Shown here piece after piece: positions 18,393 to 64,000 of a stretch of 64,000 nt of DNA. Made by a program: the position numbers and the translations under genes. A model generated the notes under the pieces. It made no database searches. It was given only the letters and a program-made list of their open reading frames with translations, and was not told where the DNA came from. The stretch is from Actinomycetota bacterium (GTDB lineage Bacteria; Actinomycetota; Thermoleophilia; Gaiellales; F1-60-MAGs149): contig VGBM01000005.1 of NCBI GenBank assembly GCA_016870485.1, positions 24,214-88,213 of the forward strand, read 5' to 3'. Position 1 is the stretch's first letter. The number at the start of each line of letters is the position of its first letter.

Positions 18393-20452
18393 GCGCCACG
18401 CTCCTGATCGAGCTCGGCTGCGAGGAGCTGCCCGCCGGGGCCTGCCGCGTCGCCGAGCGCGAGGCCGCGCCGGCCGTCGAGCGGCTGCTCGCCGAGCGGC
18501 GCCTCGCGCCCGCGTCGGTGGAGGCCCTGATCACGCCGCGGCGAATCGCGGTGCTGGCTGCGAGCGTGCCCGCCGAGGCGCCCGCCGAGACGGTCACCGT
18601 GACGGGCCCGCCGGAGCGCGCCGCGAGGGACGACCAGGGCGCCTGGACGAAGGCCGCCGAGGGCTTCGCCCGCAAGCACGGCCTGACGCCCGACCAGCTC
18701 GGCGTCGCTGCGGACGGGCTCCTGACCGCCACCGTGGAGCGCCCGGCCGTCCCGCTCGAGGCCTGCGTGCAGGAGCTGGTCGACGGGCTGATCGAGGGCC
18801 TGCAGATGCCCAAGAACATGCGCTGGGGCACGGGCGCGCTGCGCTTCTCGCGCCCGATCCGGACGCTCTGCGTCCTGCACGGCGAGCGCCTGCTCGAGGC
18901 CGAGGTGCAGGGCGTGGCGAGCACGCGCACGGTGCGCGGGCACCGCGTGCTCCGGCCCGAGGTCGAGCTCGCGAGCGCCGACGACTACGTGACGGAGCTC
19001 GGCGGCGCCGGGGTCGCGGTGCGCACCGCGGACCGCCGCGAGGTGATCGAGGCGCTGCTCGCCTCCTCGGCGAAGATGCACGACGCCGCCTGGGAGGACC
19101 CGGGCCGCGTGCTCGACGAGGTCGTCTACCTGGTCGAGTGGCCGCGCGTCCTCGACGGCCAGATCGCGGAGCGCTTCCTGGAGCTGCCCGACCGCGTGCT
19201 GGTCAGCGCGATGCAGTCGCACCAGCGCTACCTGCCCCTGCGCGGGCAGACGGGCACGCTGCGGCCCGTCTTCCTGACCGTCGTCAACTCCCACCCCGAC
19301 GCCGACCCGGCGGTGCGGGCGGGGAACGAGCGCGTCCTCGCCGGCCGCCTCGACGACGCCGCCTTCTCGCTCGCGAAGGACCGCCAGCGGGGCATCGAGG
19401 CGATGGCCGCCGTGCTCGACCGCATCACCTACCACCAGCGGCTCGGCACCCTCGCCGACCGCACCGCGCGCCTCGTGGAGCTGGCCGGCGCCCTCGCCGA
19501 CGCGGCCGGCGCCTCGGCCGACGACCGCGGGCACGCCGTCGCGGCGGCGCGGCTCGCGAAGGCCGACCTGGCCTCGACGATGGTGGGCGAGTTCGCGGAG
19601 CTGCAGGGCGAGACGGGCATGGAGTACGCGCGCGCCGCGGGCCTGCCCGAGCCGGTCTGCGTGGCGATCGCCGAGCAGTACCGCCCCGACGGCGCGGGCC
19701 GGCCCGTCCCCGACACCCTGCCGGGCGCCCTGCTCGCCCTGGCCGAGCGCCTCGACCAGCTCGTCGCCGTGATCGCGATCGGCGAGCGGCCCACGGGCTC
19801 GCGCGACCCGTACGCGCTGCGCCGGGCCGCCGCCGGCATCGCCGACATCCAGGCCCGCTGGGGCATGCCGCTCGACCTGCCCGCGCTCGTCGAGCGGGCC
19901 CACGGCCTGCTCGTCGGCCAGCGCGCCGACCTCGAGCTCGACGCCGAGGCCGTGCGCGAGGCCGTCGTGCCCTTCGTCCTCGACCGCGTCGACCAGGCCC
20001 TCGGCGAGGAGGGCGTGCCCGTCGACGTCCAGCGCGCCGCCCGCGGCGCCGGTCCCGTCGACCCGGCCCGCCACGCCGCGCGGGCCCGCGCGCTCCACGC
20101 CGCCCGCGACTCCGAGGAGCTCGCCCGCGCGCACGCGGCAGCCGTCCGCTGCAGCCGGATCGGCGGCGGCGAGGCGCCCGCCGACGCGCTCGACCCCGCG
20201 CTCTACGAGGGCGACGCCGAGCCGGCCCTCGCCGCCGCGCTCGCCGACGCGGCGCCGCGGATCGCCGCGGCCGACGACCCGGCGGAGGCCCTGCGCCTCG
20301 CGGCCGGCCTCGCCGACCCCGTCGACGCCCTCTTCGACGCCGTCATGGTCCTCGCCGACGACCCCGCCGTGCGCGCCAACCGCGTGCGCCTCGTCGCCGA
20401 AGCGGCCGCGGCCCTCCGTCCCGTCGGCGACCTCACCCAGCTGCAGCGATGA
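18389..20452 (+). CDS. glyS: Glycine--tRNA ligase beta subunit
   Basis: 687 aa from GTG 18389, overlapping the glyQ stop (GTGA). [14 protein letters not shown]-terminus, MRWG, HQRYL. Confidence 0.9.
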
Positions 20453-56231: not shown

Positions 56232-57536
56232 ATGCACACGCCCGAGCCCCCCTTCAGCCCCATCGAGGATGCCCTCGAGGACATCCGCCGGGGCAAGATG
56301 ATCATCATCGTCGACGCGCCCGACCGCGAGAATGAGGGCGATCTGTGCATGGCCGCTGAGTTCGTGACCGCGGACGACATCAACTTCATGGCCACCCACG
56401 CGCGCGGCCTGGTCTGCCTGACCCTGACCCCGGAGCGCTGCGACACCCTCGGCCTGCAGCCGATGGTTGCGCACAACGTGACCACGTTCGAGACGGCCTT
56501 CACCGTCACGATCGAGGCCAAGGAGGGCATCTCCACCGGCATCAGCGCCGCGGACCGCGCGCACACGTGCCGCGTCGCCGTCGACCCCGCCAAGGGCGCC
56601 GACGACATCCAGATGCCGGGCCACATCTTCCCGCTGCGGGCCCGCCCGGGCGGCGTGCTCGAGCGCACCGGGCAGACGGAGGCCTCCGTCGACGTGGCGC
56701 GGCTCGCCGGCTGCACGCCCGCGGGCGTGATCTGCGAGGTGATGAACCCGGACGGCACGATGGCCCGCGTCGACGACCTCGCGCGCTTCAAGGACGAGCA
56801 CGACATCAAGATCATCACCGTCGCCGACCTGATCGAGTACCGCCGGCGCACCGAGCAGCTCGTGGAGCGCGTCGCGGAGGTCAACCTGCCGACCGCGTAC
56901 GGCGACTTCCACGCGATCGGGTACCGCGAGACGCTGCACGACAAGCAGCACCTGGCCCTGATCTACGGCGAGGTGGACGGCCGGGAGGACGTGCTGGTGC
57001 GCGTCCACTCCGAGTGCCTGACGGGCGACGTCTTCCACTCCCTGCGCTGCGACTGCGGCGAGCAGCTGAACCTGGCGATGCAGCAGGTCGTGCAGGCCGG
57101 GAGCGGCGTCGTGCTGTACATGGCGCAGGAGGGCCGCGGCATCGGGCTGCTCAATAAGCTGCGCGCCTACGAGCTGCAGGAGCAGGGCCGCGACACCGTC
57201 GAGGCGAACGTCGAGCTCGGCTTCATGGACGACCAGCGCGAGTACGGGATCGGCGCCCAGATCCTCGCCGACCTCGGCCTCTCGACGATCAAGATCCTCA
57301 CGAACAACCCCCGCAAGATCATCGGCCTCGAGGGCTACGGCCTGAAGGTCACCGAGCAGGTGCCGATCGAGGTCGAGCCGGGCGAGCACAACGCCGACTA
57401 CCTGCGGGTCAAGCGCGAGAAGCTCGGCCACGCGCTGCACCACCAGCACATCAAGGCCGCCGACATCCTGCCGGGGACGCCCCCGACCGGTGCGGTCGAC
57501 CCGGCGGCCGGGGAGCCGGCGGGCGCGCAGCCGTGA
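56232..57536 (+). CDS. ribBA: Bifunctional DHBP synthase / GTP cyclohydrolase II
   Basis: 434 aa from ATG 56232. DRENEGDL, CLTGDVFHSLRCDCG. Confidence 0.93.
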   Translation: MHTPEPPFSPIEDALEDIRRGKMIIIVDAPDRENEGDLCMAAEFVTADDINFMATHARGLVCLTLTPERCDTLGLQPMVAHNVTTFETAFTVTIEAKEGISTGISAADRAHTCRVAVDPAKGADDIQMPGHIFPLRARPGGVLERTGQTEASVDVARLAGCTPAGVICEVMNPDGTMARVDDLARFKDEHDIKIITVADLIEYRRRTEQLVERVAEVNLPTAYGDFHAIGYRETLHDKQHLALIYGEVDGREDVLVRVHSECLTGDVFHSLRCDCGEQLNLAMQQVVQAGSGVVLYMAQEGRGIGLLNKLRAYELQEQGRDTVEANVELGFMDDQREYGIGAQILADLGLSTIKILTNNPRKIIGLEGYGLKVTEQVPIEVEPGEHNADYLRVKREKLGHALHHQHIKAADILPGTPPTGAVDPAAGEPAGAQP

Positions 57537-58036
57537 CGCAGCCCGACGCGGCCGACAGCATCCAGCCGCCGGCGGGCGCGCGGCGGATCGAGCCCGCGGG
57601 GCTCGACGCGGGCACGCGCGTCGCGATCGTGGCCGCCGAGTACCACACGGACATCGTCCAGGAGCTCGTCAACGGCGCCGTGCGGGAGCTCGTGGAGCGC
57701 GGCGTCGCGGCGGACGCGATCGACGTCGTACCGGTGCCGGGCGCCTTCGAGATCGGGCTGGCCGCGCAGCGCTGCGCGGAGCGCGGGTACGACGCGGTGA
57801 TCGCCCACGGCTGCGTGATCCGCGGCGACACGCCGCACTTCGACTACGTCTGCCAGGCCGCGATGAGCGGCGTCGCCGACGCCTCGCGCGCCACGGGCGT
57901 GCCGATCGCCTTCGGGGTGCTGACCGTGGAGACGCACCAGCAGGCGCTCGACCGGATCGGCGGCGACGAGGGGCACAAGGGCCGCGAGGCCGCCGCGGCG
58001 GCGCTCGGCCTGCTCGCCACGCTGCGCGCGCTCTGA
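57533..58036 (+). CDS. ribH: 6,7-dimethyl-8-ribityllumazine synthase
   Basis: 167 aa. The GTG overlaps the ribBA stop (GTGA). VPGAFEI, GDTPHFDYV. Confidence 0.92.
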   Translation: MTQPDAADSIQPPAGARRIEPAGLDAGTRVAIVAAEYHTDIVQELVNGAVRELVERGVAADAIDVVPVPGAFEIGLAAQRCAERGYDAVIAHGCVIRGDTPHFDYVCQAAMSGVADASRATGVPIAFGVLTVETHQQALDRIGGDEGHKGREAAAAALGLLATLRAL

Positions 58037-58049
58037 GGGGCGCGGCGCC

Positions 58050-58241
58050 CTAGAGGGCGCGCTGCACCTTGCCGGCCTTGAGGCAGCGGGTGCAGACGTA
58101 GGCGCGGACGGCGACGCCGTCCTTGAGGATGCGCAGCTTCTGCAGGTTCGCGTCGGAGCGGCGCTTCGTGGCGACCATGGAGTGGCTGCGGTTGTTGCCG
58201 AAGGAGGGACCCCGGCCGCAGGAACTGCAGACGCGCGACAT
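58050..58241 (-). CDS. rpmB: 50S ribosomal protein L28 (Cys4 zinc-ribbon form)
   Basis: 63 aa from ATG 58241. MSRVCSSCGRGPSFGNNRSHS...CTRC. Confidence 0.88.
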   Translation of the reverse strand: MSRVCSSCGRGPSFGNNRSHSMVATKRRSDANLQKLRILKDGVAVRAYVCTRCLKAGKVQRAL

Positions 58242-58294
58242 GCGCGCAGTATGCTGGACCCATCGATTGGCCGCAAACGGCAACCGTCGCGCCC

Positions 58295-60025
58295 GTGCCC
58301 GAACCGCCCGCTCCCACGCCGCTTGACCTCGCGCTCGGCGCCCGTGCGGCGCTCGCCCGCGAGCGCGAGCGGCTCAACGCGATCAACGTCTACCCGGTCG
58401 CCGATGGCGACACGGGCTCCAACATGCTGGCCACCGCGGACGCCGTGGTGCGGGCGCTGCGCGAGGGGCCGGCGGACCCGGCCCGGGCGGCGGGCGACGC
58501 GGCGCTCCTCGGCGCGCGCGGCAACTCGGGCACGATCCTGTCGGCGATGGTGCGCGCCCTCGCGACGGGCCTCGCCGCGGGCCCGGTCGACGGCCCCGCG
58601 GTCCGGGCCGCGCTGGTCGCGGCCGCGGAGGCCGGCTACCGGGCCGTGCCCGAGCCGGTCGAGGGCACGATGCTGACCGTCGCCCGCGCGCTCGGCGCGT
58701 CGGCGGAGGGCGCGGACGCCCGCGCGGCGGTGGCCGCCGCGCTGGCGGGAGCGCAGGCGGCGTTGGCGGCGACGCCGGACCAGCTGGCCGTGCTCCACGA
58801 GGCGGGCGTGGTCGATGCCGGGGCGGCGGGCCTCGTGGCGCTCGTCGAGGGAGCGCTGGCCGCCCTCGACGGCGAGCGCTTCCCCGACGCGGCGCCGGCG
58901 GCGGTGGAGATCGAGGCGCACGTGCACGACCCGACCAGCCGCTACCGCTACTGCATCGGGTTCGTCGTGCGGGGCGCCGAGCCGGACGGGCTGCGGGCGG
59001 CGGCGCTCGGCTGGGGCGACTCCGTGGTCGTGGTCGGTGACCGCGAGCTGGCCCGCGTCCACGTCCACGCCGACGATCCCGCGCAGGTGCTGGCGGCGGC
59101 TGCGGCGCTGGGGGCGGTGGAGGGCGAGGCGGTCTCCGACATGCGCGCGCAGATCGCCGAGCGCCACGGCGGTGCGGCGCCCGCGGGCGGGGTGGCGATC
59201 GTCTACGACTCGACGGCGGACCTGCCGACCCCTGAGCGCGCCTCGTGGCGGATGGTGCCGCTGACCGTGGCCTTCGGGGCGGACGAGCTGCGCGACTACG
59301 TCGACCTCGACGCGGACGCGTTCTACGCGCGCCTCGCGCGCGACCCGCACCACCCGACGACGTCGCAGCCCTCGCCCGGTGCGTTCGCCGCCGTCTACCG
59401 CGAGCTGCTCGAGGCCCACGACCACGTGCTCTCGATCCACATCTCGTCGCGGCTGAGCGGCACCCTCGCCTCGGCGACCGCGGCCGCGGCGGACTTCCCC
59501 GGGCGGGTGACGGTGGTCGACTCCCTCAGCGTGTCGATGCCGCTCGCCCTGACCCTGGTCCGCGTGCAGGAGGCGCTCGACCGCGGGGCGGACCCGGCCG
59601 AGGCGCCGGCGATCATCGCCGGCCTGCGCGCGCGCTCGGCGTGCCTGTTCAGCGTGTCGACCCTGGAGTTCCTGCAGCGCGGCGGGCGCATCGGCCGCGC
59701 CCAGGCCCTGCTCGGCGGCGTGCTCGGGGTGCACCCGATCCTCGCCGTCGAGGACGGCGAGGTGGTGCCGGCGCTGAAGGTGCGCGGCCGGGACAACGTG
59801 CTGCCGGCGCTGGTCGGGGAGATGGTGCGCCGCTCGGCGCCGTACGCGGAGGTCGACGTGGCGATCGCGCACGCCTCGGACCCCGTGCGGGCCGCGCAGC
59901 TCGAGGCGCTCGTGCGCGCGGCGCGGGGCGGAATCCGCTCGGTGCGCACCCTGACCCTCGGCGCGGTGGTCGGGGCGCACGCGGGGCCCGGGGCGCTGGG
60001 CCTCGGCTACGTCGGCGTGGACTGA
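58295..60025 (+). CDS. DhaL (DAK2, FakA/YloV-type) domain fused to a DegV (FakB-type fatty-acid-binding) domain
   Basis: 576 aa. N-terminus YPVADGDTGSNM...GARGNSGTILS (DhaL). YloV-type middle domain RYRYCIGFVV...GDSVVVVG...VHVHADDP. C-terminus IVYDSTADLP, TTSQPSPGAF, IHISSRLSGT, LEFLQRGGRI, GAHAGPGALG (DegV). Confidence 0.8.
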   Translation: MPEPPAPTPLDLALGARAALARERERLNAINVYPVADGDTGSNMLATADAVVRALREGPADPARAAGDAALLGARGNSGTILSAMVRALATGLAAGPVDGPAVRAALVAAAEAGYRAVPEPVEGTMLTVARALGASAEGADARAAVAAALAGAQAALAATPDQLAVLHEAGVVDAGAAGLVALVEGALAALDGERFPDAAPAAVEIEAHVHDPTSRYRYCIGFVVRGAEPDGLRAAALGWGDSVVVVGDRELARVHVHADDPAQVLAAAAALGAVEGEAVSDMRAQIAERHGGAAPAGGVAIVYDSTADLPTPERASWRMVPLTVAFGADELRDYVDLDADAFYARLARDPHHPTTSQPSPGAFAAVYRELLEAHDHVLSIHISSRLSGTLASATAAAADFPGRVTVVDSLSVSMPLALTLVRVQEALDRGADPAEAPAIIAGLRARSACLFSVSTLEFLQRGGRIGRAQALLGGVLGVHPILAVEDGEVVPALKVRGRDNVLPALVGEMVRRSAPYAEVDVAIAHASDPVRAAQLEALVRAARGGIRSVRTLTLGAVVGAHAGPGALGLGYVGVD

Positions 60026-60027
60026 TC

Positions 60028-60045
60028 GGGGCCGCCGCCGGCCCC
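60028..60045 (+). terminator. GC hairpin just after the DhaL-DegV gene
   Basis: GGGGCCG-CCGC-CGGCCCC, a 7-bp stem. No U-tract follows. Confidence 0.3.
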
Positions 60046-60105
60046 CGCCTGGGCCGCCCGCTTCGCCTTGATCTCGGACGCGAGCCTCGCGCCCTGGACC
60101 ACCGC

Positions 60106-60198
60106 TCAACCGGGGCCGTAGACGGGGCGCTTGAGGATCGTGGTCACGACGGCCATCACGGCCCAGGCCACGATCAGGGCGATCACCCACCATTCCAT
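60106..60198 (-). CDS. Possible 30-aa single-TM micro-protein
   Basis: MEWWVIALIVAWAVMAVVTTILKRPVYGPG. ATG start, high third-position GC. Below the ORF-track size cutoff. No other support. Confidence 0.25.
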   Translation of the reverse strand: MEWWVIALIVAWAVMAVVTTILKRPVYGPG

Positions 60199-60234
60199 AC
60201 CAGGCAGAATAGCGGGGCCGCCGGGCGGCCATGT

Positions 60235-60240
60235 TATAGT
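60235..60240 (+). promoter_or_regulatory. -10-like TATAGT 7 nt upstream of ATG 60248 (leaderless arrangement)
   Basis: TATAGT-GGCTCAC-ATG. Confidence 0.4.
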
Positions 60241-60247
60241 GGCTCAC

Positions 60248-60553
60248 ATGAGCGAATACCAGATCACCTACTGGCGCGACATCCCGTCGCTCGTGACGGC
60301 GCGCGACGGCGACGACACGGCCAAGGCATCGCTGCCCCAGCGCTTCCAGGAGGCGATCGACGAGGCCGCCATGCGGCTCGGCGAGGCCGACGCGGACGCC
60401 TACATGGCCGGCTGGCGCCGCGGCGACTGGACGCCCGCCGAGGGCGTGCCCGCCGCGGTGGCCGACCGCGTCGCCGGGGAGCTCGAGGCCGAGCTCGACG
60501 CGGACGCCCTCAACGCCCTGCTCGACGCACTGGGTCCGCCCCAGGAGGCCTGA
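60248..60553 (+). CDS. Small 'virulence factor'-domain-like protein (the type found next to homocysteine methyltransferase domains)
   Basis: 101 aa from ATG 60248. The N-terminal YQITYWRDIPSLVTA matches my memory of the PF13769-type pattern. The gene lies 2 nt upstream of the methyltransferase gene. Confidence 0.6.
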   Translation: MSEYQITYWRDIPSLVTARDGDDTAKASLPQRFQEAIDEAAMRLGEADADAYMAGWRRGDWTPAEGVPAAVADRVAGELEAELDADALNALLDALGPPQEA

Positions 60554-60555
60554 CC

Positions 60556-61440
60556 ATGAGCGGCATGCTCGAGACCCTGGGGTCCGGTGGTCGCCTCCTC
60601 GGCGACGGCGCGATGGGCACGATGCTCCAGGAGGCCGGCCTCACCGACGGCGGCGCGCCCGAGCTCTGGAACGTCGAGCAGCCCGAGAAGGTCGAGGGCA
60701 TCCTCGAGGCGTACGCCGCGGCCGGCGCCAACCTGATCACCACCTGCACCTTCGGCGGCACCCGTCCGCGGCTCGAGATGCACGACCTCGGCGATCGCGT
60801 CGAGGAGCTCAACCGCGCCGGCGCGGAGCTCGCGCGGCGCGTGGCCGACCGCCACCCCGGCAGCTACGTGCTCGGCGACGTCGGCCCCTCCGGCGAGCTG
60901 ATGGAGCCGATGGGCACGCTCACGCCCGAGACGGCGCAGGAGCTCTTCCGGGAGCAGATCCGCGGCCTCGTCCAGGGCGGGGCGGACGCGATCCTGATCG
61001 AGACCATGTCGGACCTCGGTGAGGTCGAGGCCGCCGTCGAGGCCGCCAAGGCCGAGGCCCCCGGCCTGCCGATCCTCGTCACGATGTCGTTCGACACGAA
61101 CCTGCGCACGATGATGGGCGTCAAGCCCGGCCAGGCCGTCGCGGCGGTCGGGGCGATGGGCGCCGACGTGGTCGGCGCCAACTGCGGCCGCGGCCCCGAC
61201 GAGATGCGCCAGATCGCCGCCGAGCTGACCGAGGCCCGGCCCGCGGGACTCTTCCTGATGACGCAGTCGAACGCCGGCCTGCCCCAGCTCGTCGGCGACG
61301 AGTTCCGCTACGACGGCACCCCCGAGGTCATGGCCGACTGGGCCCACGACATGCGCGCGCTCGGGATCGACGTGATCGGGGCCTGCTGCGGCTCGACGCC
61401 GGAGCACATCGCCGCGATGCGCGACGTCGTGCTCGGCTGA
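60556..61440 (+). CDS. Stand-alone homocysteine S-methyltransferase-domain protein (MetH N-terminal / MmuM-like)
   Basis: 294 aa. LGDGAMGTML, zinc ligands in GANCGRGP and IGACCGSTPEHI. Confidence 0.88.
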   Translation: MSGMLETLGSGGRLLGDGAMGTMLQEAGLTDGGAPELWNVEQPEKVEGILEAYAAAGANLITTCTFGGTRPRLEMHDLGDRVEELNRAGAELARRVADRHPGSYVLGDVGPSGELMEPMGTLTPETAQELFREQIRGLVQGGADAILIETMSDLGEVEAAVEAAKAEAPGLPILVTMSFDTNLRTMMGVKPGQAVAAVGAMGADVVGANCGRGPDEMRQIAAELTEARPAGLFLMTQSNAGLPQLVGDEFRYDGTPEVMADWAHDMRALGIDVIGACCGSTPEHIAAMRDVVLG

Positions 61441-61444
61441 TCCC

Positions 61445-62134
61445 TCAGCCGGACCGGGTCAGCCAGTCGGATAGCCGCCGGCGCAGGGTCGGCCGGGGGT
61501 ACAGCCGCGCGGCCTCCGCGGCGGTGATGCCGAGGTGCGCGCGCGGGAGCCGCTGCGCGGACGGGGCGTAGCGGGGCAGGGGGCCGAGCGGGTCCGTGCC
61601 CGGGTCGATCACGACGGGCACCCCGTAGACCTCCTCGAGGAGCGGGGCGAGCTCCTCGGCCGGCACGGCCCGCAGCTGGCCCGCCTCCCAGGTGAAGGCG
61701 AAGCAGAGCCCGTCGGTCGTGGCCGCGTGCACCGTCAGCCGCGTCGGGTAGGCGTGCTCGGCGCGCCAGCCGCGCTTGTGCCGCAGGACGGCGCCCCACA
61801 GAGCGACCTCGCCGGAGACGGCGCGCAGGCCGCGCGTGTCGGCGGCGTCCATCAGGGCCGCGCCCTCCGAGCGCCAGGCGTGGACGCCGCACGTGCAGCC
61901 CTCGGCCGGGGCGTCGTGGCCGGCGGGAGCGCGGCTAACGGGGCGGACGCCGAGCGGTGAGGTCCAGGTCGAGACGCCGCAGCGCGCGCCATGGGTCTGG
62001 CGGGGCTCCCAGATGGTGCGCCGGTACGGCGACGCGAGCACGGGGTCGCCGGAGGGGTGGATGCGCACCGTCCACGAGCGGTAGCCGAGGACCGGCTCGA
62101 TCAGGTCGGGGACGACGTAGGCGCCGTCCGTCAC
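61445..62134 (-). CDS. Uncharacterised Cys/His-motif protein (operon gene C)
   Basis: 229 aa from GTG 62134, which overlaps the upstream micro-ORF stop (GTGA). GYRSWTV, ARCGV...GHDAPAEGCTCGVHAW, GEVALWGAVLRHKRGWRAEHAYP. No family recognised. Confidence 0.6.
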   Translation of the reverse strand: MTDGAYVVPDLIEPVLGYRSWTVRIHPSGDPVLASPYRRTIWEPRQTHGARCGVSTWTSPLGVRPVSRAPAGHDAPAEGCTCGVHAWRSEGAALMDAADTRGLRAVSGEVALWGAVLRHKRGWRAEHAYPTRLTVHAATTDGLCFAFTWEAGQLRAVPAEELAPLLEEVYGVPVVIDPGTDPLGPLPRYAPSAQRLPRAHLGITAAEAARLYPRPTLRRRLSDWLTRSG

Positions 62135-62286
62135 GCCGGCACGGGCTCCTCGCGCGGGACGGGCGCCGGCGCCGGCTCGGGCCGGGGGTCGGGAGCGGGC
62201 GCCTCGGCCGGCTCGGGCTCGCGCGCGGGCACCGGCGGGGTCGCCGGTTCGATCACGATGCGCTCCTCCTCCTCGCCGATGTCCAC
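62131..62286 (-). CDS. Pro/Glu-rich 51-aa micro-ORF (operon gene B)
   Basis: VDIGEEEERIVIEPATPPVPAREPEPAEAPAPDPRPEPAPAPVPREEPVPA. Nearly every codon ends in G or C, which is the coding-frame signature here. It fills the gap between genes A and C exactly. Confidence 0.4.
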   Translation of the reverse strand: MDIGEEEERIVIEPATPPVPAREPEPAEAPAPDPRPEPAPAPVPREEPVPA

Positions 62287-62295
62287 GGCGGAAAC

Positions 62296-63075
62296 CTACC
62301 CGCAGACGAGGCTCGGAGGCACCAGCATCGCGCCCTCGCGCGGGTCCCCGGGCGGGGGCAGGCGCAGGGCACGGCCGAGGTCGCGGGCCGTCGACAGGCG
62401 CAGCGCGCTCGCCGTCGCGTCGAAGGCGTCCTCGCTGTCCGCGGCGCGGCCGAGCTGGCCGCGGGTGAGATCCGCGTGGCGGCGCAGCCACGTGCGGCGC
62501 TCCGCCGGCCGCGACTTCGCCACGGGCCCGGTCAGGAGGCGCGGCCAGATCTCGCAGACCGCGTGCCGGCCGGCCGGCTGGAACGGCCAGATCGCCCAGC
62601 CGGCCGCGGCGAGGTGCGGCAGGTGGGGGATCCCTCGGACGGTGCCCGTGCCGACGGCGCCCGCGCCGCCGATCTGGAACACGCTCTTTGGGGTGATCCC
62701 GGACACGCTCCAGCCCTCCTCGCAGGCCCGCAGCTGGGTCTCCGGGCCGCGTCGGGTCCCGGGCCGGCCCCAGAACGGCGCGGGGCAGTCGGCGAGCCAG
62801 CGCTCGCCGTGCTCCGCCACGCCCGCCCAGACGTCCGCGGGGCGGCGCCAGCCGTGTGCGTCGAGGAACCAGGCCGGGTACGAGAAGGCGAAGTCGATCC
62901 CGACCACCGCGCGCGGCACCTCCCGGCGGCGCGCGCACAGCCAGTCGACCACGGCCGCGCGGTCGCGGCCGCCCTCGAGTCGCTCGAGGCGGCCGTCGAC
63001 GGCCTCGGCGATCCAGATCGTGCGCGCCGCGCCGGTCCGCGCGCCCGACCAGTCGACGGCGATCACGCGGGCCAT
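62296..63075 (-). CDS. Uncharacterised DUF429-like / RNase-H-fold-like protein (operon gene A)
   Basis: 259 aa from ATG 63075. MARVIAVDWSGA, VVGIDFAFSYP, PKSVFQIGGAGAVG, CEIWP, SEDAFDATASAL. The family assignment is from memory only. Confidence 0.6.
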   Translation of the reverse strand: MARVIAVDWSGARTGAARTIWIAEAVDGRLERLEGGRDRAAVVDWLCARRREVPRAVVGIDFAFSYPAWFLDAHGWRRPADVWAGVAEHGERWLADCPAPFWGRPGTRRGPETQLRACEEGWSVSGITPKSVFQIGGAGAVGTGTVRGIPHLPHLAAAGWAIWPFQPAGRHAVCEIWPRLLTGPVAKSRPAERRTWLRRHADLTRGQLGRAADSEDAFDATASALRLSTARDLGRALRLPPPGDPREGAMLVPPSLVCG

Positions 63076-63087: not shown

Positions 63088-63115
63088 GCACACCCCGGAC
63101 CGGAGGGCCGTGCGC

Positions 63116-63121
63116 GAGAAT
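63116..63121 (+). promoter_or_regulatory. -10-like GAGAAT 6 nt upstream of the recG GTG (leaderless arrangement)
   Basis: GAGAAT-CCCGAC-GTG. Confidence 0.3.
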
Positions 63122-63127
63122 CCCGAC

Positions 63128-64000
63128 GTGCCCGCGCCCTTCCCCGGAGTCGACGCCCTCGCATCCCCGCCGCGCCCGCGCACCTGGCCGGACCCCGCGC
63201 TCCTCGCCGCACCGATCGGCGGCCCGAAGCGCCGCCTCGAGGGGCTCCATGCGATGGGCCTGCACACCCGGTCGGACCTGCTCGAGGCGCTGCCCTTTCG
63301 CTTCGAGGACCTGCGCCGCGTGCGCCCGATCGCGGAGGCGATCCTCGCGGGCGACGCCGACGTGACCGTGATCGGCCGGGTCGGGGCGATCCGCGAGCGC
63401 CCGACGCGCCGGCGCGGCCTCAGGATCCTCCAGACCACGCTCTCCGACGAGACGGGCTCGGTCTCCCTGACGTGGTTCAACCAGCGCCACCTCGCGCGCA
63501 CCCTCGAGCCGGGGGCGCGGCTCGTGGCGCGCGGCACGCTCAAGCGGGGGGCGCACGGCGTCGACCTGGCGGTGCGCTCGCACGAGCTGCTCGATGGCCC
63601 GGGCGACGAGGAATCCGCGGCGGGCGGGCTCGTGCCCGTGTACCACGCCTCGGCGCGGGTCTCGACGGCCGTCCTGCGCGGCCTCGTCGACGACGCCCTG
63701 CGCGACGTCGGCGACCGCATCCCCGACCCCGTGCCCGTCGACCTGCGCGTGCGCCACCGGCTGCCCCTGCGCCGCGACGCCATCACCGCGGGACACCGGC
63801 CCCGGCGGCAGGGTGAGCAGCGCACCGCGCGCCGGCGGCTCGCCTACGAGGAGCTCCTGCTCCTGCAGCTCGCGCTGCTCCTGCACCGCGACGCAATCGA
63901 CCAGCGGGCGGGCGCCGTGCCGCTCGGGCCGCCGGGCGGCCTCTCGGAGCGCTTCCGGGCCGGGCTGCCGTTCGCGCTGACGGCGGCCCAGGAGCGGGCG
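63128..64000 (+). CDS. recG: ATP-dependent DNA helicase RecG (5' part; runs off the window)
   Basis: Absent from the ORF track because no stop lies in the window. My own translation from GTG 63128 gives ...LHAMGLHTRSDLLEALPFRFEDL, the wedge OB domain VTVIGRV...LQTTLSDETGSVSLTWFNQ, and LPFALTAAQERA at the window edge. Confidence 0.88.
   Translation, partial: MPAPFPGVDALASPPRPRTWPDPALLAAPIGGPKRRLEGLHAMGLHTRSDLLEALPFRFEDLRRVRPIAEAILAGDADVTVIGRVGAIRERPTRRRGLRILQTTLSDETGSVSLTWFNQRHLARTLEPGARLVARGTLKRGAHGVDLAVRSHELLDGPGDEESAAGGLVPVYHASARVSTAVLRGLVDDALRDVGDRIPDPVPVDLRVRHRLPLRRDAITAGHRPRRQGEQRTARRRLAYEELLLLQLALLLHRDAIDQRAGAVPLGPPGGLSERFRAGLPFALTAAQERA

Follow-up and report, generated by a model that had tools for sequence, protein, structure and literature searches.

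A DegV domain in place of the FakA C-domain: a candidate single-chain fatty acid kinase in a Gaiellales bacterium

Work on fatty acid kinase (Fak) has so far been confined to pathogens among the Firmicutes, where it is a two-protein system. In the two-component systems of Firmicutes (Staphylococcus aureus, Streptococcus suis and the YloV/DegV pair of Bacillus subtilis), FakA carries a Dak2/DhaL domain and a Cys-His-His middle domain, and FakB is a DegV carrier with a Thr/Ser/His/Arg set of residues. The FakA C-domain (FakA_C) is the only S. aureus FakA domain with detectable FakB binding; FakA_NL, the S. aureus protein without it, is still an active kinase, with a Km for FakB that is about ten-fold higher. 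Docking into FakA_C involves a FakB arginine, R202/R205 (R202 in S. suis FakB2) (PMC9136124, PMC10848957). Here we describe a gene from an Actinomycetota bacterium of the Gaiellales (contig VGBM01000005.1), located in a stretch of 64,000 nucleotides that we analysed as a whole and refer to as the window. It encodes a protein of 576 amino acids (aa) in which a Dak2 domain, a FakA middle domain and a complete DegV domain form one polypeptide, with no FakA_C. The explanation we favour, with good if not complete confidence, is that it is a self-contained single-chain fatty acid kinase with the mechanism and the origin proposed below.

The fusion gene lies at 58295..60025 on the forward strand (end coordinate including the stop codon), and its open reading frame (ORF) begins with a GTG that is the first possible start codon past the upstream stop. 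An earlier note, made from the letters of the DNA, had read this ORF as a DhaL domain, a YloV-type middle domain and a full DegV domain in a single chain, and the Pfam models Dak2, FakA-like_M and DegV bear this out. The Dak2/DhaL ATP–Mg domain occupies residues 34–188 (58394..58858, +; PF02734, 7e-27), the FakA middle domain, a dimerisation and catalytic domain of zinc-finger type, residues 217–289 (58943..59161, +; PF21645, 3e-16), and the full-length DegV/FakB domain, predicted to bind fatty acid, residues 300–573 (59192..60013, +; PF02645, 6e-72). The PF02645 match spans profile positions 2–278 of 280 with 242.8 bits (cut-off 27), and the NCBIfam DegV domain model TIGR00762 scores 251.9 bits (cut-off 99.7). 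FakA_C (PF13684) gave no Pfam match in the 576-aa protein. All ten motifs quoted earlier were found: ADGDTGSNM (residues 36–44) and GARGNSGTILS (73–83) in the DhaL domain; RYCIGFVV (218–225), GDSVVVVG (241–248) and VHVHADDP (255–262) in the middle domain; and IVYDSTADLP (302–311), TTSQPSPGAF (355–364), IHISSRLSGT (381–390), LEFLQRGGRI (457–466) and GAHAGPGALG (560–569) in the DegV domain.

The models that define the two-component proteins are matched in part. The YloV model TIGR03599 (NCBIfam) scored 250.9 against a cut-off of 396.1, matching over positions 8–302 of 530; the FakA model NF038248 scored 143.3 against 975; and residues 15–286 of the query match S. suis FakA over residues 15–319 of 554 only. 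Because FakA_C is missing and these scores fall below their cut-offs, the protein is not FakA as curated. Nor is it a free-standing FakB, since the carrier domain forms the C-terminal part (residues 300–573) of a chain of 576 aa and not a separate DegV of ~280–310 aa; the FakB1 equivalog NF038249, representing the FakB1 type for saturated fatty acids, scored 123.7 bits against a cut-off of 350.

An AlphaFold2 model built with 34 homologues had a mean predicted local distance difference test score (pLDDT) of 88.1, low confidence being limited to two linkers, residues 203–214 and 292–297, with pLDDT <50 at 292–297. The modelled C-domain has the two-subdomain DegV fold, including the insertions that are not in FakA_C, and superposes on crystal structures of fatty-acid-loaded FakB/DegV proteins over the whole of these structures (276–288 residues) with template modelling (TM) scores of 0.84–0.90 at ~2.5 Å. 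The modelled N-domain matches Thermus thermophilus FakA_N (7ed6) with a TM score of 0.88. At the sequence level, the Dak2 domain aligns to the solved FakA_N chains 7ed6, 8vip, 7rm7 and 7w7h_A and the middle domain to 7w7h_A, while residues 300–575 match 22 solved DegV/FakB sequences end to end (best T. thermophilus 2dt8, 5e-50). A four-domain relative, P0044, which holds both FakA_C and DegV, allowed a direct comparison: the query C-domain is 52% identical to the DegV part of P0044 (E = 9e-78) and matches the FakA_C of the same protein with a best E of 0.38. The proposal that a DegV domain occupies the place of the FakA C-domain is thus upheld by the absence of PF13684, by the TM scores to FakBs and by the two P0044 comparisons, and the same three lines (Pfam, fold and P0044) support the idea of a fused kinase and substrate-presenting unit, whose kinase activity and lipid binding are predicted from sequence.

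Between the middle and DegV domains lies a linker of ~10 residues (residues 290–299; 59162..59191, +; ...ERHGGAAPAGG...), which sits where canonical FakA has its FakA_L–FakA_C linker; the latter is 9 residues long (PMC9136124). Homologues have between about 8 and 45 residues at this place. A few family members depart further in length: P0107 (680 aa) has ~90 residues between the middle and DegV domains, P0038 (679 aa) has ~100 residues ahead of its Dak2 domain, possibly from a mis-called start, and P0095 (641 aa) also has extra length.

We scored residue invariance in an alignment of 34 three-domain homologues sharing 34–93% identity, mapping the DegV residues from gap-free alignments with constant offsets. 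The reference sites were those defined in the literature, namely the Mg/nucleotide site of DhaL, the Cys240/His282/His284 triad of S. aureus FakA, and the carboxylate ligands T61, S93 and H264 and the catalytic R170 of S. suis FakB2 (PMC9136124, PMC10848957). Every one of these experimentally defined catalytic or ligand residues is kept in the 34 homologues. In the Dak2 domain, D37, G38, D39, T40, G41, N43, G76, N77, G79, E123, T125 and D174 are invariant in 34/34; so are C220, H256 and H258 of the middle domain, which correspond to the S. aureus triad and align to the S. suis FakA motifs, and, in the DegV domain, the carboxylate-ligand equivalents T356, S388 and H562 together with R465, the equivalent of the catalytic arginine.

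The arginine used for docking behaves differently from these residues. Its equivalent in the query, which also stands for the membrane-wedge Arg, is R497 (window 59783–59785); it is present in the query and in 22/34 homologues. All nine free DegVs encoded next to fakA keep the docking Arg (9/9), as do 5/6 four-domain proteins, 6/10 actinobacterial three-domain proteins and 5/19 three-domain proteins of other phyla, the last having mostly Phe or Leu instead. Overall, 11/29 three-domain proteins have it and the replacements are Phe, Leu or Tyr, whereas the catalytic and carboxylate-binding residues are essentially fixed in every DegV class. The difference between DegVs with and without a FakA_C partner gave a Fisher p = 4e-4, a value uncorrected for shared ancestry and therefore indicative only. 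With that reservation, the docking Arg appears to be relaxed where the carrier is tethered and FakA_C is gone. On the FakA side, E538 of S. suis FakA appears by eye to align with a Cys in the four-domain protein P0064; this position is too lineage-specific and was not used.

A working scheme can be drawn from these data. The DegV domain would bind one fatty acid in its tunnel, with T356, S388 and H562 holding the exposed carboxylate, and the Dak2/DhaL domain would hold ATP·Mg through D37-G-D39-T-G-x-N43. The middle domain would dimerise the protein and contribute the Cys220/His256/His258 cluster needed for catalysis, while R465 of the DegV domain would stabilise the acyl-phosphate product. The tether of ~10 residues would do the job of the missing FakA C-domain by supplying the proximity that docking normally provides. 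It is the activity of FakA_NL, together with a tether at the place of the FakA_C linker, that leads us to propose a single-chain, probably dimeric kinase, in which phosphotransfer could run either in cis or in trans. Acyl-phosphate formation (EC 2.7.2.18) is predicted from the conserved residues, from the fakA slot and from the plsX/plsY neighbours of relatives, and the acyl-phosphate would then feed PlsY or PlsX and so phospholipid synthesis.

The position of the gene also speaks to its ancestry. It was proposed from the sequence that the ORF stands in the yloV/fakA position, and the flanks agree: the divergent rpmB gene (ribosomal protein L28; 58050..58241, −; PF00830), the conserved left neighbour of the fakA slot, is separated from it by 53 bp (58242..58294, read from the sequence), and recG follows further downstream (5' part, cut by the window end; 63110..64000, +; Pfam RecG_wedge, and a tblastn match at about 63170). 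In distant three-domain relatives (~41% identity) and in the four-domain proteins the order is rpmB–asp23–[fak]–recG … plsX–acpP, which is the classical yloU–yloV–recG slot; recG directly follows the fusion gene in related loci, and the relatives' fak slot lies a few genes upstream of plsX–acpP. From this shared slot it follows that the fusion gene is a positional orthologue of fakA. Close relatives (63–68% identity) show the query layout, followed by rsmD–coaD–yceD–(plsX)–acpP–rnc–smc, and plsX sits between yceD and acpP in L092 and in more distant relatives. No asp23 was found in the window by tblastn, including at its usual upstream place, and the gene is missing in the query clade.

Is this fusion a curiosity of one lineage? 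The earlier note implied that it was rare, and this does not hold. A family profile was searched against 1.84 billion cluster representatives (50% identity) and the best 150 were examined: ~140 of these were single-stretch full-length matches of 573–667 aa, 7 were four-domain proteins of 821–854 aa, and even the match at rank 150 scored >508 bits. Among species-representative genomes, a scan yielded 39 loci with contiguous matches across both halves, and all of those checked with Pfam (10/10) were true Dak2–M–DegV ORFs, from about nine phyla and in part from cultured bacteria (Lysobacter, Pseudoxanthomonas, Labilibaculum and Vagococcus). The confirmed fusions come from Eisenbacteria, Krumholzibacteriota, Marinimicrobia, Syntrophales, Labilibaculum filiforme, Maridesulfovibrio, Longimicrobiales, Pseudoxanthomonas sp. 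Root630, Vagococcus salmoninarum and Lysobacter daejeonensis. The query therefore belongs to a large family of three-domain fusions, which lacks a name of its own and can already be seen in databases: PGAP and IMG uniformly call the 570–650-aa fusions 'DegV family protein', NCBIfam has no model specific to the Dak2–M–DegV architecture, and the kinase half is invisible in annotations.

In ten loci of other phyla, among them Lysobacter, Pseudoxanthomonas, Bacteroidaceae, Cytophagia and Spirochaetota, the three-domain gene is adjoined, usually immediately downstream, by a Pfam-confirmed plsY (PF02660; L017, L020, L025, L038, L040, L042, L043, L066, L076 and L088). PlsY is an acyltransferase that consumes acyl-phosphate, and its adjacency would be independent support for an acyl-phosphate product. 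Taking the family as a whole, we lean towards the view that three-domain proteins are self-sufficient Faks that arose repeatedly after fusion, and that Fak outside Firmicutes occurs mainly in this form, often encoded beside plsY, a view held less firmly than our reading of the query itself. The architecture has a short written history. A 2021 heliorhodopsin preprint credits Erni et al. 2006 with a report of Dak2–DegV fusions and itself observed such fusions near heliorhodopsin genes. That statement is the sole mention of a natural FakA–FakB fusion that we found in the literature. The 'Dak2–DegV fusion' of the 2006 authors (Erni and colleagues) could mean either the three-domain form or canonical YloV.

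The actinobacterial group contains three states of the system. In the first, fakA and degV are separate adjacent ORFs (L053 and L081; Gaiellaceae representatives, judged by ORF structure); in the second, they are joined as Dak2–M–FakA_C–DegV; the third is the three-domain form of the query. The four-domain class of Gaiellales/Thermoleophilia (821–854 aa; L009 8001–10466, L010 8001–10478, P0044, P0045, P0053, P0064, P0092 and others) stands in the asp23–[fak]–recG slot and amounts to a complete FakA plus a complete FakB; P0064, for instance, aligns to S. suis FakA over residues 12–553 of 554, with FakA_C fully kept. In several phyla, fakA and, directly behind it, a separate degV read in another frame lie between asp23 and recG: Paenibacillus aceris (L071), other Bacillota (L058, L078, L079 and L082), Anaerolineales (L063), Bacteroidota (L067), Actinomycetota (the two loci given above) and L085. 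The fusions likely go back to such adjacent fakA–degV genes, with the four-domain proteins as a likely intermediate on the way to the three-domain form.

Trees of the N–M and DegV parts (neighbour-joining, 200 bootstraps, limited sampling) are consistent with such a series. The DegV tree gathers the query clade, the remaining three-domain proteins of actinobacteria, every four-domain protein and the free DegVs encoded beside fakA in a single clade (100% support) and places the three-domain proteins of other phyla outside it. Within the actinobacterial group, a three-domain subclade (P0050, P0058, P0066 and P0091) is sister to four-domain proteins with 100% support in both trees, and the partner of the query clade in the DegV tree is the four-domain P0044 (66%). 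The occurrence of adjacent pairs and four-domain fusions in the same slot suggests fusion, followed by loss of a FakB-docking domain that had become redundant. For the query lineage the proposed path would thus run from adjacent fakA and degV through a four-domain FakA–DegV to loss of FakA_C, and the simplest reading of the trees is that this sequence, in that direction, was probably travelled more than once.

Several observations weigh against the single-chain kinase that we propose. No biochemical study of a fused form was found in the literature. In the S. suis crystal structure FakA_C touches the N-domain of the partner protomer as well as FakB, so its loss may need structural compensation. 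FakB must also cycle to the membrane for ligand exchange, and a tethered dimer of ~124 kDa leaves this step unexplained. The AlphaFold2 model has a predicted TM score of only 0.54 and does not fix the placement of the DegV carboxylate relative to the nucleotide site. Searches of the 64-kb window with tblastn found no plsX, plsY or DUF1295 gene, and L091 (63% identity; 18853–20015) lacks a plsX call between yceD and acpP, which stand only ~400 bp apart. As to the origin, the N–M tree joins the query clade to the actinobacterial group at only 36–76% bootstrap, and both trees are neighbour-joining trees on limited sampling.

How far do these points favour other explanations? The most serious, though in our judgement an unlikely one, is that the kinase half also, or mainly, serves free FakB/DegV proteins encoded elsewhere, in which case stoichiometry and specificity would not be fixed. 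Firmicutes typically pair one FakA with several FakBs, FakA_NL of S. aureus phosphorylates free FakB1 without FakA_C at the raised Km given above, Gaiellaceae representative genomes have separate degV ORFs beside fakA, and the query keeps R497, the Arg of docking and membrane binding. A protein without FakA_C, however, has no known docking site for a free carrier, binding to FakA_N or FakA_L alone being undetected, and a tethered DegV would out-compete free ones through local concentration; moreover, tblastn found no second DegV or Dak2 gene within the 64-kb window, the rest of the genome lying outside our data. It is far less probable that the protein is a lipid binder of another kind, phosphorylating some other DegV-bound ligand or acting as a lipid sensor or regulator. 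Such a role would suit the low FakB1 equivalog score, far under its cut-off, and the frequent pairing with the reductase/methyltransferase-like DUF1295 in other phyla, which hints at a modified lipid substrate there; and function is here wholly a matter of prediction. Against it stand the invariant Thr/Ser/His/Arg set for carboxylate binding and phosphotransfer, the many fatty-acid-loaded crystal structures among the matched solved homologues, the location in the fakA slot (with plsX close by in relatives), and the adjacency of plsY in ten loci, which points to acyl-phosphate.

The direction of evolution could also be reversed, with the three-domain form as an ancestral DhaL–DegV kinase from which canonical FakA arose as its DegV degenerated into FakA_C. 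FakA_C is indeed a stripped-down DegV/EDD fold, PF13684 weakly matches the DegV domain in several fusion proteins, and the three-domain form is spread over many phyla. We nonetheless regard this as improbable for the query: the DegV domains of its lineage group at 100% with free fakA-adjacent DegVs and four-domain fusions, and the four-domain proteins hold both FakA_C and DegV, so that DegV was there added to a full FakA and is not the precursor of FakA_C. For the deep pan-bacterial clade, an ancestral three-domain form may still be correct. Finally, we tested whether the C-terminal region is no more than an ordinary FakA C-domain and whether two genes had been joined into this ORF artefactually, and reject both with near certainty. 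FakA_C and DegV share a fold and might be confused by eye, but the region matches PF02645 at 6e-72 and not PF13684, its fold agrees with FakBs over ~280 residues, and its match to the bona fide FakA_C of P0044 is not significant. As for an artefact, gene calls on 12 independent metagenome contigs give the identical 576-aa protein, the ~140 cluster representatives have the same architecture, as do homologues at 34–93% identity, and the gene has a GC content at third codon positions (GC3) of 0.97, in line with neighbouring real genes. The fusion ORF is thus genuine, as the earlier note had assumed.

Set beside the systems described so far, the proposed single-chain kinase shares with two-component FakA/FakB its kinase and carrier domains and their residues, its rpmB/asp23–fakA–recG … plsX–acpP slot and, presumably, its reaction. 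It differs in being one polypeptide without FakA_C (PF13684), in the loss of asp23 from its clade, and in a carrier-to-kinase ratio fixed at 1:1 within each chain. The four-domain Gaiellales/Thermoleophilia proteins share its lineage and slot, with DegV domains up to 55% and N–M parts 45–47% identical, yet keep a complete FakA_C. Three-domain proteins of other phyla (Xanthomonadales, Bacteroidota, Gemmatimonadota, Desulfobacterota, Spirochaetota, Marinimicrobia and others) have the identical domain architecture and the conserved catalytic residues; they form separate clades of only ~30–33% average identity to it, mostly with Phe/Leu for the docking Arg, and their genes are followed by DUF1295 and/or plsY and do not lie in the asp23–recG slot. 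The DhaK–DhaL kinase of Citrobacter freundii likewise joins an EDD-fold substrate domain and a DhaL domain in one chain and is a dimer (PMC10848957), but it has the K-then-L order, no middle zinc-finger domain and covalently bound dihydroxyacetone; it is a mechanistic analogue from a different family.

What the window yields is a functional annotation made with confidence, and not a system of a new kind. The fusion architecture itself could already be seen in databases and had been mentioned in the literature; our analysis adds the evolutionary series, the relaxation of the docking residue and the association with plsY. Because the name 'DegV family protein' hides the kinase half across at least nine phyla, metabolic reconstructions miss a route of free-fatty-acid activation. 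If our reading is correct, activation of fatty acids through acyl-phosphate would extend to Xanthomonadales, Bacteroidota, Gemmatimonadota, Thermoleophilia and other phyla, and the loss of FakA_C would be a natural experiment confirming FakB docking as its only essential role. The three-domain family would offer an independent evolutionary test of domain roles derived from mutagenesis, and a single-chain Fak a simpler structural target in which the hard-to-trap kinase–carrier complex is covalently joined.

Around the fusion gene, the window reads rpe–ribD–ribE–ribBA–ribH, rpmB (−), the fusion gene, a gene for a PF13769 'Virulence_fact' protein (60248–60553), a homocysteine S-methyltransferase gene (60556–61440), three genes on the minus strand (229, 51 and 259 aa) for which Pfam gave no match, and recG. 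The genes between the fusion and recG belong to an insert of ~3 kb (window 60106–63075) that shifts recG away from the fusion gene; it is kept within the query clade (L091 and L092) and is not in more distant relatives. In L092, a 719-aa minus-strand gene without Pfam match occupies the expected recG position. On the opposite strand, an antisense ORF of 949 aa (window 57398–60247, −) overlaps the whole fusion gene; its codon-position GC (0.91 at first positions, GC3 0.80) is the mirror pattern of a high-GC artefact, and we rejected it as a gene.

Finally, in at least 15 loci from several phyla a DUF1295 membrane protein gene (PF06966) lies within a few bases of the three-domain gene. It is called at L025 7741–8517 and L056 7759–8535, and tblastn matches were obtained in L016, L018, L021, L026, L027, L037, L042, L044–L046, L050, L051 and L084. 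An association of DegV with DUF1295 near heliorhodopsin genes was described in the 2021 preprint, and DUF1295 resembles steroid 5-alpha-reductase and PEMT.

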